IMG/VR virus record: IMGVR_UViG_3300028886_000082
Span: 1-64,000 of that record
DNA from: a virus
Taxonomy: Duplodnaviria > Caudoviricetes
Length of the DNA: 64,000 nucleotides
Direction: 5' to 3' (one strand)
The first letter of the stretch is position 1. Every line of letters begins with the position of its first letter. Below the pieces are notes generated by a model. The model was not told the origin of the DNA, made no database searches, and was given only the letters and a program-made list of their open reading frames with translations. Positions 4,200 through 15,360 of the stretch are shown one piece after another. A program made the translations under genes and the position numbers.

Positions 4200-4988
4200 A
4201 TGAGTACAGAAATTATTAGGTTTGACAACCAGAAAGTAAAGGGTATGACCTCTTTACAAATTGCCGAAACTACAGGCAAGAATCATAAAGATGTATTGCG
4301 TGACATACGCAATCTTTTAGAGAGAGGAGCTAGCGAGCGCAACTTTGCGCTGACCTCTTACGACGACAAACAAGGTAAGGAGAGACCTATGTATGAACTT
4401 ACACCCAAAGGTTGTCTGATCCTTGCTTCAGGATATGATGTTGTTCTGCGCGAGAAAATAATCGACAAGTTGGAAGAGTATCAGCAGAACGAGGCCACAT
4501 CTGTCACAACCCTACCCGACTTTACTAATCCTGCAGAGGCAGCAAGGGCATGGGCAGAACAGTTTGAGCTTAAACAGATTGAAGCCAAACGTGCAGACGA
4601 GGCCGAATCACAAGTGTTGTCTCTTACGCAGGAGATTGCAACCATGCAGCCTAAAATATCATACTATGATACCATACTGAATAACACTTCTACAGTACTT
4701 ACCACTCAGATAGCACAAGACTATGGAATGTCTGCTGTTGCTTTTAATAAGGTGCTGAACGAGATCAGCATTCAACGCAAGGTCAATGGTCAATGGATAC
4801 TCTATGCACCTTATCTTTCTATGGGTTATGTACAATCCAAGCCAGTAACAATCACCCACACCAATGGAAACCAATCCGTCAAGTACAACACGGAATGGAC
4901 GCAGAAAGGCAGGCTTTTTCTATATGAGGAACTCAAGAAGCACGACATTCTTCCGCTTATAGAGGTTTCACAACAAGGTCTTTTTTAA
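4200..4988 (+). CDS. Rha-family regulator fused to a KilAC/ANT antirepressor domain
   Basis: [24 protein letters not shown] (Rha N-terminus); [14 protein letters not shown]...[12 protein letters not shown] (KilAC). Confidence 0.88.
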
Positions 4989-5107: not shown

Positions 5108-5293
5108 ATGGTAAAGGATGATAAAGGAGATGTGTGGCTCACCACCAAGGAAGCTGCCACCAAACTGAACCTCTCTGTAGGTAGAATCTATCAGATAAAG
5201 AACTCTCTGACCCATCGTAAGATAGGAGACACAAACCAAGGCAGGGTGTTTTTTTTGGAAAGGACTCTTTTCGATGATTATATGAATATGTGA
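5108..5293 (+). CDS. Helix-turn-helix protein (excisionase/MerR-like)
   Basis: WLTTKEAATKLNLSVGRIYQIK; likely ATG at 5108. Confidence 0.7.
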   Translation: MVKDDKGDVWLTTKEAATKLNLSVGRIYQIKNSLTHRKIGDTNQGRVFFLERTLFDDYMNM

Positions 5294-5419
5294 TTTCATT
5301 GGTTTTAGTAGTAATTACTTGTTTTAAGTTTTTAGTTATTGGGATACCCAAGCGTGGGTAATTCGCTTAACAGACAAAGAACTCTACCTGCCATCCGTGA
5401 GGCTCGCAGGCTTTCAAAA

Positions 5420-5506
5420 GGGAAAGTAGCTCAGTTGGTAGAGCGTCACGATAGGTTGCTGGACATCAGTGCCTGAAGGTCGCAGGTTCGAGTCCTGCCT
5501 TTCTCA
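5420..5506 (+). tRNA. tRNA-like RNA with an expanded (21-nt) anticodon loop; isotype undetermined
   Basis: Acceptor GGGAAAG/CTTTCTC, D arm GCTC-AGTTGGTA-GAGC, variable AGGTC, T arm GCAGG-TTCGAGT-CCTGC; anticodon stem TCACG/CCTGA encloses 21 nt; no encoded CCA. Confidence 0.75.
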
Positions 5507-5640
5507 CAATCAGACACACCAAGTCCCAATAGTGCGAATGGGGATATATCGAATGTTTTCATGGCTGATTACAAGCTTGGCGAGTCTTTATACGTGGTCT
5601 TTGACTTATTGGTTTACATGATGAACGTGGAAAAGGCCAC

Positions 5641-5709
5641 GTATGGAGAACCCCCGATCCACAAACCGCAATAGTGCGTAAGGTGGGTAACAAGTCGGTA
5701 GGCTCCTAC
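5641..5709 (+). ncRNA. Long imperfect hairpin immediately 5' of the twister ribozyme
   Basis: GGAG/CTCC, CCGA/TCGG, TCCAC/GTGGG and CGCA-ATAG-TGCG nested stems; 10-mer CAATAGTGCG repeated at 5527 and 5669. Confidence 0.45.
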
Positions 5710-5716
5710 ATTCGTA

Positions 5717-5785
5717 TGCTGTAATGCAGCCCCTTATATAATAAATAAGGTGAGTGTTCCCAAGCCACTAATGCAGAGGGCAGCA
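5717..5785 (+). ncRNA. Twister self-cleaving ribozyme (type P1, with P3)
   Basis: P1 TGCTG/CAGCA, L1 TAA, P2 TGCA/TGCA, P3 CCTTAT/ATAAGG, P4 AGTG/CACT with loop TTCCCAAGC, 3' GAGGG; matches the twister core with both pseudoknots. Confidence 0.9.
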
Positions 5786-5816
5786 AATTATAGGAAAATT
5801 ACAAGCAAATTAAATC

Positions 5817-6128
5817 ATGATAGAACTCCCAACCCGAAGAAGGCTTGAAAGGAGGCGCGACAGGCTTTATGAACATCTTCATTCTATTCTCCATAATGCG
5901 AGCGTTATCCAGGTGGAGAATATCATGAGACAGATTCATGCCATAAACCTAAAGCTGCGCATTTATTTCAAAGGTGGTATTGACCGCCAGCCTCACGAAT
6001 TATTTATTAATCCTGACGAAGACAATGACATTACAACGCAAGACACCGCTACGGGCGAAATCTCCCCTACAGCGGAAGAGTTATCTCAAATCGAAGCAGA
6101 AATCAAAGAAGGAGAAATCCAAATTTGA
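5817..6128 (+). CDS. Hypothetical protein
   Basis: 103-aa ORF in the operon; overlaps the next gene. Confidence 0.5.
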   Translation: MIELPTRRRLERRRDRLYEHLHSILHNASVIQVENIMRQIHAINLKLRIYFKGGIDRQPHELFINPDEDNDITTQDTATGEISPTAEELSQIEAEIKEGEIQI

Positions 6129-6576
6129 GGCCACTGAGGTGAAGGCCAAGAAGAAACTTCCAAATAAGTTTTCAAAAAAGAAACTAATAGAGAAACTTGA
6201 CCGTATCTTCTCACAATATATTAGGCTGAAGTTTTCTGATAGCAGAGGAATATGTCAGTGTATATCATGTACGAAAAGGCAACCCTGGAATGAGATTCAG
6301 AATGGCCATTATATGAGTAGACGTTATTTCTCAACTAGATGGAGTGAGGATAATTGCAGGCCGCAATGCGTTGCGTGTAATATCTTTAATCAAGGGAATA
6401 TACAAGCTTACAGAGTTTCGCTTATTAAGCAGATTGGCGAACAACGTGTTAATCTTGTAGAGGCAAGGGCGAGACAGGAAACTTTCAAGTATGGAGAGTT
6501 TGAACTAAATGCGATGATCAAACACTACACAAAGGAAGTCGAAAGAATAGCAAAAGATAAAGGAATAGAATTATGA
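6025..6576 (+). CDS. ninG: NinG/Rap-like recombination endonuclease
   Basis: KLDRIFSQYIRL, CISC, NGHYMSRR, NCRPQCVACN motifs; likely ATG at 6025. Confidence 0.85.
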   Translation: MTLQRKTPLRAKSPLQRKSYLKSKQKSKKEKSKFEATEVKAKKKLPNKFSKKKLIEKLDRIFSQYIRLKFSDSRGICQCISCTKRQPWNEIQNGHYMSRRYFSTRWSEDNCRPQCVACNIFNQGNIQAYRVSLIKQIGEQRVNLVEARARQETFKYGEFELNAMIKHYTKEVERIAKDKGIEL

Positions 6577-7217
6577 GAACTTGTAAAGTGTGTGGTAAAA
6601 CCAAAGAAGATACTGAGTTTTATGGTAAAACCAAGAATTATACTTGTAAACGTTGCGTATGTGAAAGAAATTCGCGTATAGTATATGAGCGTAACCTTAT
6701 AAAAGAACCAAGTTTAGAAGGAGAAATCTGGCAAACATACCCAAATAATCGGAATTATTTAATATCTACACTTGGAAGAGTCAGAGGTAGAAGTGGTAGA
6801 ATATTACACCCTGCAAAACATCGGCAAGGTTATTTATGGTTAAAGGTTGGCAAATCCCATTGTTTGGTTCATAGATTGGTTGCAGAAACTTTTATACCAA
6901 ATCCATATAATAAGTCAACTGTCAATCATATTAATGCTATAAAATCCGATAATAGAGTTGAAAATTTAGAATGGGCAACTCAGTCAGAAAATAATTGCCA
7001 TGCACTAGGTTTACATCTGAGATACTTTACAAGAAAGATGTGGGAGAACTGCACAAAAGGGCATAAATTATCCAAAAGACAAGTTGACAAAATAAAAACG
7101 GAATATAAAAGTGGCAAACCGCAATTTAAACTTGCAGAAGAATTTCATGTGTCAAGAGCGCAAATATGCAGAATAATAAACGGTAAATCACGAAATTCAA
7201 AATACCAAATCAAATGA
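6573..7217 (+). CDS. NUMOD4/HNH endonuclease with zinc finger and HTH
   Basis: EIWQ...YLISTLGRVR (NUMOD4); VHRLVAETFI...VNHINAIKSDNRVENLEW (HNH_3). Confidence 0.9.
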   Translation: MRTCKVCGKTKEDTEFYGKTKNYTCKRCVCERNSRIVYERNLIKEPSLEGEIWQTYPNNRNYLISTLGRVRGRSGRILHPAKHRQGYLWLKVGKSHCLVHRLVAETFIPNPYNKSTVNHINAIKSDNRVENLEWATQSENNCHALGLHLRYFTRKMWENCTKGHKLSKRQVDKIKTEYKSGKPQFKLAEEFHVSRAQICRIINGKSRNSKYQIK

Positions 7218-15247: not shown

Positions 15248-15360
15248 GGGTGGATAGCTCAGTTGGTAGAGCATGCTGGAGGTGGAGCTGAAACCACGTT
15301 AATCATTAGCTTTAATCCAATAATATAGCAAGGTCAGTGGTTCGAGTCCACTTCCACCAA
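15248..15360 (+). tRNA. tRNA-like RNA with a 47-nt anticodon-loop insertion; isotype undetermined
   Basis: Acceptor GGTGGA/TCCACC, D arm GCTC-AGTTGGTA-GAGC, anticodon stem TGCTG/TAGCA, variable AGGTC, T arm AGTGG-TTCGAGT-CCACT. Confidence 0.75.

Follow-up and report, generated by a model that had tools for sequence, protein, structure and literature searches.

Comparative analysis of a candidate RNA-maturation cassette, formed of a tRNA-like element, a conserved structured RNA and a twister ribozyme, in a rumen phage

The DNA analysed here, referred to throughout as the window, is the first 64 kb (64,000 nucleotides, nt) of the 74,242-bp virus record IMGVR_UViG_3300028886_000082 in IMG/VR, whose source is a rumen phage of the Prevotella type. 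Positions 5296-5790 hold a cassette composed, in order, of two conserved hairpins, a transfer RNA (tRNA)-like element, a structured RNA, and a type-P1 twister ribozyme (Table 1). The genes flanking it on either side all run rightward, and the cassette sits in an early, rightward polycistronic transcript. An earlier note on this DNA described ~500 nt without an open reading frame (ORF) here, which is borne out, the plus-strand overlaps being ORFs of only 32-50 amino acids (aa). Coding by such small ORFs was rejected: the lengths of insertions and deletions among homologous cassettes do not keep to multiples of three, reading frames are not preserved, and substitutions in the stems are compensatory.

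Table 1. Features of the cassette, its component helices, and the neighbouring genes; positions are those of the window.
Feature	Position	Strand	Description or basis
Small hydrophobic ORF, after the antirepressor gene		rightward	Upstream of cassette
Rha/Ant antirepressor gene	4200-4988	+	Upstream of cassette
Weak helix-turn-helix ORF	ends 5293	rightward	Last gene before cassette
Conserved box	5321-5342	+	GTTTTAAG-TTTTTAG-TTATTGG; ~22 nt; tandem GTTTT(T)AG repeat; 5' of hairpin 1
Hairpin 1	5346-5359	+	Stem ACCCA/UGGGU, loop AGCG; read in sequence, kept in relatives
Hairpin 2	5387-5410	+	Outer stem CCUGC/GCAGG, internal loop, short inner stem, GUGA (GNRA) loop
tRNA-like element	5420-5506	+	87 nt; Rfam tRNA, 55.1 bits
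Variable 5' domain	5507-5591	+	RNAalifold on five type-A homologs
5' domain, outer helix	5512-5515/5584-5587		AGAC/GUCU
5' domain, closing stem	5519-5523/5576-5580		CCAAG/CUUGG
5' domain, hairpin	5524-5527/5541-5544		UCCC/GGGA; bears CAAUAGUGCG
Conserved 3' domain, RNA motif	5592-5716	+	Alignment A4, covariation
3' domain, single-stranded leader	5598-5612		UCUUUGAC..UGG
3' domain, junction helix 1	5621-5624/5712-5715		AUGA/UCGU
3' domain, junction hairpin	5625-5630/5637-5642		ACGUGG/CCACGU
3' domain, junction long arm	5645-5648/5703-5706		GGAG/CUCC; ends in CAAUAGUG loop region (5669-5676)
Type-P1 twister ribozyme	5717-5785	+	RF03160, structure-guided parse
Twister P1	5717-5721/5781-5785		UGCUG/CAGCA; predicted cleavage U5722^A5723
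Twister P2	5725-5728/5772-5775		UGCA/UGCA
Twister P3	5732-5737/5745-5750		CCUUAU/AUAAGG
Twister P4	5753-5756/5766-5769		AGUG/CACU
Twister L4	5757-5765		UUCCCAAGC
Twister pseudoknot T1	5759-5761/5778-5780		CCC/GGG
Twister pseudoknot T2	5729-5730/5764-5765		GC/GC
Arg-rich ORF	5817-6128	+	103 aa; N-terminus MIELPTRRRLERRRD...; first gene after cassette
NinG homolog		rightward	Downstream of Arg-rich ORF
Free-standing homing-type endonuclease gene	6573-7217		NUMOD4 + HNH_3; directly after NinG homolog, ~800 bp past cassette

Homologous cassettes were sought through searches anchored on two proteins, the antirepressor and the product of the downstream ORF, through a DNA pattern of two conserved blocks run against metagenome and genome collections, and through a twister-based pattern, with filtering by BLAST and a covariance model. 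The first two DNA patterns were too loose and gave mostly chance loci, to which the BLAST filter was applied. Around 20 cassettes were recovered, 17 of them distinct in the 3' domain of the structured RNA, mostly from rumen-type metagenomes and gut or rumen viral contigs; one (L347, the relatives being designated here by L numbers) lies on a contig of an uncultured Prevotella metagenome-assembled genome (MAG). A blastn search of the INPHARED phages gave no match to the cassette, none of the 12 new loci found in IMG/VR with a wider three-block pattern was confirmed by the covariance model, and covariance model R1, which scores 132 bits on the window, found nothing in 86 of 87 other loci scanned or in 150 further Prevotella genomes.

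A new RNA motif is formed by the 3' domain (~95 nt) of the middle RNA, in which a single-stranded leader is followed by a three-way junction. Alignment A4 comprises 16 distinct sequences of the last ~125 nt, and the structure derived from it with RNAalifold contains 27 pairs, of which 15 show compensatory change, with 97% of cells occupied by standard pairs. The covariation score was 0.479 in the true register as opposed to at most 0.106 with the partner columns slid by 1-3, and was reached in none of 500 shuffles. Structural covariation among homologs, on which the earlier note had staked its proposal, is therefore clearly present, both controls having been beaten. The unpaired blocks GUAUGG, AAAC, CAAUAGUG, AAGG and CCUACAUUCGUA, together with the leader UCUUUGAC..UGG, are almost unchanged among homologs.

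The CGTGG/CCACG pairing picked out previously is a real hairpin (5625-5642) with three compensatory pairs. The "long rod hairpin" proposed alongside it does appear in a single-sequence fold, but the comparative data favour the three-way junction instead. The rod is an alternative pairing of 5592-5599 (ACGUGGUC) with 5635-5642 (GGCCACGU), which excludes the local hairpin; it can form in about half of the homologs, being found also in the L002, L003, L337 and L331 types, shifted in L146, and absent from the other types, and so is not a family-wide feature. A conformational switch is one possible reading of it, a simple local duplication another.

No Rfam family matched the 3' domain at E<=10 except DUF2693 (12.9 bits, E 6.2), which was treated as chance though the string UCUUUGACAUA is held in common. 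An all-against-all column scan of the domain for extra covarying pairs or pseudoknots gave scattered pairs fitting shared ancestry, and no contiguous helix. A sigma-70 promoter at the TTGACA of the conserved leader was considered and rejected, as neither its spacing nor its -10 box is conserved, and the constraint on this region acts at the RNA level. The only host DNA found to resemble the RNA was the cassette copy itself.

The twister was matched by RF03160 at 5718-5784 in a permissive Rfam scan (40.5 bits; E 1.9e-7 on the window, E 5.5e-9 in the whole record). In this alignment cmscan left P4 unaligned, which lowered the score; the full twister element set is present by eye. Twisters are defined by a double pseudoknot, the helices P1, P2 and P4, and a U-A cleavage site (PMC6154101). 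In the window the elements follow the canonical type-P1 order, P1-L1(UAA)-P2-L2(GC)-P3-P4-L4(UCCCAAGC)-P2'-GAGGG-P1' (RF03160; PMC6154101), with both T1 and T2. The cleavage dinucleotide is present in U5722-A5723-A5724, as are the ..CCCAAGC.. bases of L4 and the GAGGG sequence at 5776-5780. The type-P1 topology places the cut at the 5' edge of the ribozyme, so that only 6 nt of it would be left on the upstream RNA.

For comparison, 14 distinct versions were parsed by structure, with the best-pairing register chosen, so the parse leans towards the model; on this basis 12 of 16 core pairs are compensatory and 97.8% of cells are paired. P1, P2 and P4 are paired in the canonical order in every version, with 10 of their 11 stem pairs compensatory. 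The variants include GCUG/CAGC, GAUG/CAUC, UCUG/CAGA, ACCUU/AAGGU and GACUA/UAGUC for P1; UGCA/UGCA, UGUA/UACA, AGCU/AGCU and AGCA/UGCU for P2; and AGUG/CACU, CACG/CGUG, CGCG/CGCG, UCCG/CGGG and AACG/CGUU for P4. The optional P3 is AU-rich, CCCACA/UGUGGG, or absent, and the L002 type adds a P5-like hairpin. T1 covaries as CCC/GGG, GUC/GAC and UCC/GGA, and T2 as GC/GC and AC/GU. Because the class-defining features claimed for 5717-5785 are all present and covary across the versions, the twister was accepted as real. As judged by comparison, it is a new member of the twister class that was missed by the Rfam threshold, with the cut predicted between U5722 and A5723. It differs from known type-P1 twisters in three respects: the window copy falls below the gathering threshold, family members carry non-canonical covarying T1 and T2 pairings, and the ribozyme is fused 0-2 nt 3' of a conserved structured RNA. 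L354 (L354:4100-4380, minus strand) is a more divergent relative in which a further tRNA-like sequence lies 3' of the twister; the first tRNA-like element of L354 contains a G3:U70 pair, and a transfer-messenger RNA (tmRNA) model matched it at the ends only (27 bits). The L354 twister may be an inactive or re-wired copy.

P1 of the twister begins 0-2 nt after the 3' domain, at the CCUACAUUCGUA block, in all 14 distinct versions, while the sequence on its 3' side varies: the Arg-rich ORF follows in most, unrelated sequence in L324, L328 and L343, and the tRNA-like sequence in L354. With the spacing fixed and the downstream sequence changing, the twister belongs to the RNA and not to the gene behind it. 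At the level of sequence comparison, the folds, their conservation and this fixed coupling are established. The Arg-rich ORF matched no Pfam or PHROG family; it is conserved in five to six relatives and is kept in L320, which has no cassette, and it is context, outside the RNA unit.

In L320 (L320:2390-2520) the Arg-rich ORF comes straight after hairpins 1 and 2, and the three members of the unit are all missing. Since the flanks occur there without the unit, the tRNA-like element, RNA and twister form an accessory module. For the same reason the two 5' hairpins, which the earlier note had placed within a multi-part cassette, are a separate element of the operon. Both are present as claimed. 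Hairpin 1, with its AGCG loop, is found in relatives with changed stems and AGCG, AGUG or GGCG loops, and the motif CCCA..RGYG..TGGG occurs twice in the window (5347 and 15229), each time upstream of a tRNA-like element, where 0.13 would be expected by chance. Hairpin 2, with its GTGA tetraloop, is kept in every homolog, 7-14 nt 5' of the tRNA-like element; in the window it is followed by CUUUCAAAA, the gap being 9 nt. Its compensatory changes affect the outer stem (including CAUUC/GAAUG, CCAUGC/GCAUGG and GCCAGC/GCUGGC) and the inner stem (including CAU/AUG, CUC/GAG and CUU/AAG). Upstream of both, the box at 5321-5342 is nearly identical in L002, L003, L146, L324, L331 and L337, and may be a promoter or operator; no sigma-70-type promoter was called at it. 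The position of the Arg-rich ORF just 3' of two conserved hairpins, one of them GNRA-looped, recalls lambda N with its nut/boxB hairpins, or the put-type antitermination RNAs.

The 5' domain of the structured RNA (~85 nt) is closed and made of several hairpins, and at least three unrelated versions of it occur: that of the window and the other type-A homologs, type B in L002, L187, L324, L328, L347 and L354, and a third type in L146, L339 and L343. In the window type, the bases immediately after the 3' end of the tRNA-like element pair with the end of the 5' domain, which fits an RNA whose 5' end lies there. The earlier note had also drawn attention to two hairpins sharing CAATAGTGCG. Both copies exist (5527-5536 and 5669-5678), and only the 3' copy, as CAAUAGUG, is a family-wide feature, the 5' copy belonging to one version of the variable domain.

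The tRNA-like cloverleaf at the 5' end of the unit, recognised by Rfam as claimed, has 25 nt in the anticodon region as opposed to 11 in the model. It possesses the acceptor stem (7 bp, GGGAAAG/CUUUCUC), normal D arm (GCUC..GAGC), and UUCGA-type T arm (GCAGG-UUCGAGU-CCUGC) of a canonical tRNA, with discriminator A5506 and no encoded CCA. Its anticodon region, of 31 nt as opposed to 17 when counted with the stem, folds without the anticodon arm of a decoding tRNA (5-bp stem, 7-nt loop, U33, purine 37, and an anticodon conserved in relatives). ARAGORN assigns it to Pro(AGG) without the intron option and to Leu(CAG) with a 14-nt "intron" when the option is on, and assigns the L330 element to Lys, though the cassettes of L330 and the window are 88% identical overall. 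A tmRNA was rejected, ARAGORN finding none and only the tRNA-like ends matching in L354, as was an attP fragment of a host tRNA, both acceptor strands being present and paired.

The slot occupied by this element was surveyed in the 15 distinct homologs with enough upstream sequence. In all of them 6-7 of the 7 acceptor pairs, a 5-bp T stem and a UUCGANU loop are present; the discriminator is A in 13, with C as the next base, and the distance from the tRNA-like 3' end to the end of the 3' domain is 179-278 nt. The core between acceptor and T arm, by comparison, ranges from 8 nt in L347 to 119 nt. A canonical tRNA-Met(CAU) (67.9 bits) fills the slot in L146 and L340; L330 has a different arm and a weakened acceptor; L002 has a 106-nt form ending in CCA, which is encoded in two relative types; L343 has a type-II-like form; L003, L337, L339 and L331 have ~103-nt forms with an unrelated core; and L187, L324 and L328 have AU-rich inserts of 80-120 nt. 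All that remains in the slot of the Prevotella MAG copy is a bare 40-nt acceptor/T-arm minihelix, GGAGGAA..AAGGG-UUCGAUC-CCCUU-AUCCUCC-A (L347:3210-3260, minus strand), which would be a minimal substrate for tRNA enzymes. When the window element is aligned with that of L330 and the tRNA-Met of L146, the flanks, T arm and CAAUCAG trailer are common and the anticodon regions unrelated, and on this alignment the window element is homologous to the canonical tRNA-Met.

The acceptor/T-arm minihelix is the part of a tRNA recognised by RNase P, RNase Z and the CCA-adding enzyme. Because this part is constant across the homologs, and the core variable or absent, selection has kept the processing determinants (acceptor stem, T arm, discriminator) and released the decoding part. 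The Prevotella MAG carrying a cassette copy encodes both RNase Z (308 bits) and RNase P RNA (188 bits).

Two further observations concern tRNA-like forms. In the AU-rich-insert class (L187:1790-1890, L324, L325, L328) the long insertion is closed by a stem and includes a small GNRA-capped covarying hairpin (CCU-GUGA-AGG, CCC-GAGA-GGG, CCC-GCGA-GGG, UCC-GUGA-GGA), and these forms may themselves constitute a separate family of structured RNAs. Elsewhere in the window, a second tRNA-like element (15248-15360; Rfam 41.5 bits) has 51 nt replacing the 11-nt anticodon region, while its D arm and T loop match those of the first. Immediately 5' of it stands the one remaining CCCA..AGCG..UGGG hairpin of the window, and an ORF comes immediately after it. 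The arrangement suggests repeated use of tRNA-like elements by the phage to punctuate its transcripts.

The best explanation of the whole, given a probability of roughly 55%, is that the cassette serves, as a self-contained unit, to mature a phage non-coding RNA that acts in trans. From its parts we infer the cleavage events, the end chemistry and the trans action as follows. A degenerate tRNA, in one relative still a normal tRNA-Met, would be retained solely for the acceptor stem, T arm and discriminator. Cleavage by host RNase P at 5419/5420 would give the upstream messenger RNA (mRNA) a protective 3' end in the form of hairpin 2, RNase Z would cut after A5506 (5506/5507), and the twister would cleave itself between U5722 and A5723. 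The product would be a ~216-nt RNA (5507-5722) bearing a phosphate at its 5' end and a 2',3'-cyclic phosphate at its 3' end, made up of the variable 5' domain and the strongly conserved, covarying 3' three-way-junction domain, while the downstream mRNA, encoding the Arg-rich ORF, would start at A5723 with a 5'-OH and the compact twister body as a cap. Excision of an RNA of this kind (~215 nt) had been proposed in the earlier note, and the comparison strongly supports its premises (the twister, the kept tRNA-end determinants, the covarying RNA, and the coupling of the twister to that RNA) with the exception that the 5' hairpins fall outside the unit. Most likely the released RNA has a conserved partner, a protein or another RNA, on which it acts in trans, because its loop and junction bases are unvarying among phages whose flanking proteins share only ~60% identity. 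A more specific form of the proposal, put forward tentatively and with the odds somewhat against it, is that the cassette is the prototype of a hitherto undescribed route in which a tRNA minihelix and a twister make a trans-acting ~216-nt RNA; its target would be a conserved factor of the host, for instance a protein of defence or of RNA metabolism.

Several points weigh against the maturation-unit explanation. The family is small, with six or seven IMG/VR contigs, ~15 metagenome contigs, and one of 151 sampled Prevotella genomes. Most homologs were retrieved through two of the conserved blocks, CAAUAGUG and CCUACAUUCGUA, the invariance of which is partly circular as these were the search pattern; both were already invariant in five homologs obtained from BLAST alone. 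The twister scores 40.5 bits against an Rfam gathering score of 67.2, the best relative reaching 46.7, and T1 is unpaired in L354 as parsed. Complements of the leader UCUUUGAC..UGG in the host MAG showed no excess over control.

The strongest competitor, although unlikely, is that the cassette is cis-acting punctuation, with RNase P, RNase Z and the twister splitting the early transcript and the RNA between them being a by-product or folding aid; the upstream mRNA would end in hairpin 2, the downstream mRNA would receive a 5'-OH twister cap, and the stability or translation of the two halves would be uncoupled. The element at 15248-15360 argues for this, as it lies in another intergenic gap, between an AGCG-type hairpin and an ORF, with no folded RNA or ribozyme, so that the tRNA-like element seems to be used alone in this phage; the constant placement of hairpin 2 at 7-14 nt 5' of the tRNA-like element points the same way. 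A mere spacer, however, would not retain a three-way junction of 95 nt in which 15 pairs covary and the bases of the junction and loops are unvarying, nor does punctuation sit well with a twister bound at 0-2 nt to the 3' domain instead of to a particular downstream gene, or with the same ORF lacking the module in L320.

A regulated ribozyme is less probable still. Here the 3' domain would be a sensor (an aptamer or protein site) that gates the twister and so controls the downstream early gene, making it a natural allosteric twister. The anatomy is riboswitch-like, a multi-helix junction with unvarying unpaired bases whose helix 1 ends 1-3 nt from P1, and the pairing of 5592-5599 with the 3' strand of the 5625-5642 hairpin, open to about half of the homologs, could provide a switch. 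That pairing is not conserved across the family, though, the gene to be controlled varies or is replaced, no known aptamer family in Rfam was matched, and P1 is reported to be dispensable for twister cleavage (PMC6154101), so gating through P1 would be weak. The remaining alternative, a working decoding tRNA, perhaps with a short intron, whose long 3' trailer of RNA and twister is trimmed by the ribozyme in the manner of theta ribozymes, draws on an Rfam tRNA score well above threshold, the canonical tRNA-Met(CAU) of one relative, the CCA encoded in two relative types, and the theta ribozymes as a precedent for trimming phage tRNA trailers (PMC10879173), but is very improbable given an anticodon region lacking the 5-bp stem and 7-nt loop, a sole "spliced" reading that leaves a C-C mismatch and U at position 37, close relatives with unrelated cores or, in one case, none, and a twister that lies 216 nt from the tRNA end behind a "trailer" that is the best-conserved part of the locus.

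As a maturation unit for a trans-acting RNA, the cassette has partial counterparts among known systems; the literature searched yielded no account in which a twister is joined to a tRNA-like element and to a structured RNA. Non-decoding tRNA look-alikes serve as processing signals in the MALAT1/mascRNA transcript and in mitochondrial tRNA punctuation. In murine gammaherpesvirus 68 (MHV68) the TMERs join a tRNA-like element to microRNA precursor hairpins and are processed by tRNase Z (PMC4838037). As proposed for the window, the look-alike in all of these recruits host tRNA-end enzymes and frees a neighbouring RNA. They are eukaryotic or animal-virus systems, in contrast to the bacterial host here, and in none of them is the tRNA-like signal matched by a self-cleaving ribozyme at the opposite end.

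The closest phage parallel is provided by the theta ribozymes, minimal ribozymes resembling that of hepatitis delta virus (HDV), which adjoin phage tRNAs (Kienbeck et al. 2024, PMC10879173). In both cases, by prediction in the window, a small self-cleaving ribozyme of gut or rumen phages cuts at its own 5' edge, in a tRNA context, makes the 3' end of the upstream small RNA, and would stand in for a protein nuclease. The window ribozyme, however, has a twister fold and not an HDV fold, is predicted to cut 216 nt past the tRNA-like element and not adjacent to it, and would finish a structured RNA other than a tRNA, its tRNA partner being degenerate and probably non-decoding. No HDV-like family was found by Rfam in 5250-5850 at E<=10, and the locus has no HDV-like nested double pseudoknot with a site adjoining the tRNA 3' end; the theta-ribozyme paper itself contains no mention of twister (PMC10879173).

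Large structured RNAs encoded by phages near tRNAs offer a further likeness. GOLLD env-38 lies downstream of a Met-tRNA, and ROOL is of rumen origin (PMC12286853). The window RNA shares with GOLLD the layout of a conserved 3' part and a variable 5' part beside a tRNA (PMC12286853). It is distinguished from both by its length, ~216 nt as opposed to roughly 580 to over 800 nt and well short of a >500-nt size, and by the twister at its end, and neither family was matched in Rfam at E<=10.

To our knowledge, the natural roles of twister ribozymes are largely open, though the fold is well studied. Tying a twister to the 3' end of one conserved structured RNA gives it a specific, testable job, the formation of a non-coding RNA 3' end, and, if the prototype route to a trans-acting RNA is true, this would be a concrete natural job for twister ribozymes. 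The pairing of a twister with a tRNA mimic, reduced in one relative to a minimal RNase P/Z substrate, would make the cassette a natural counterpart of the engineered tRNA- and ribozyme-flanked cassettes used for RNA expression. The analysis adds a new ~95-nt RNA motif from rumen phages, and would extend the theta-ribozyme idea, in which small ribozymes replace protein nucleases, to a second ribozyme class and to a product that is not a tRNA.

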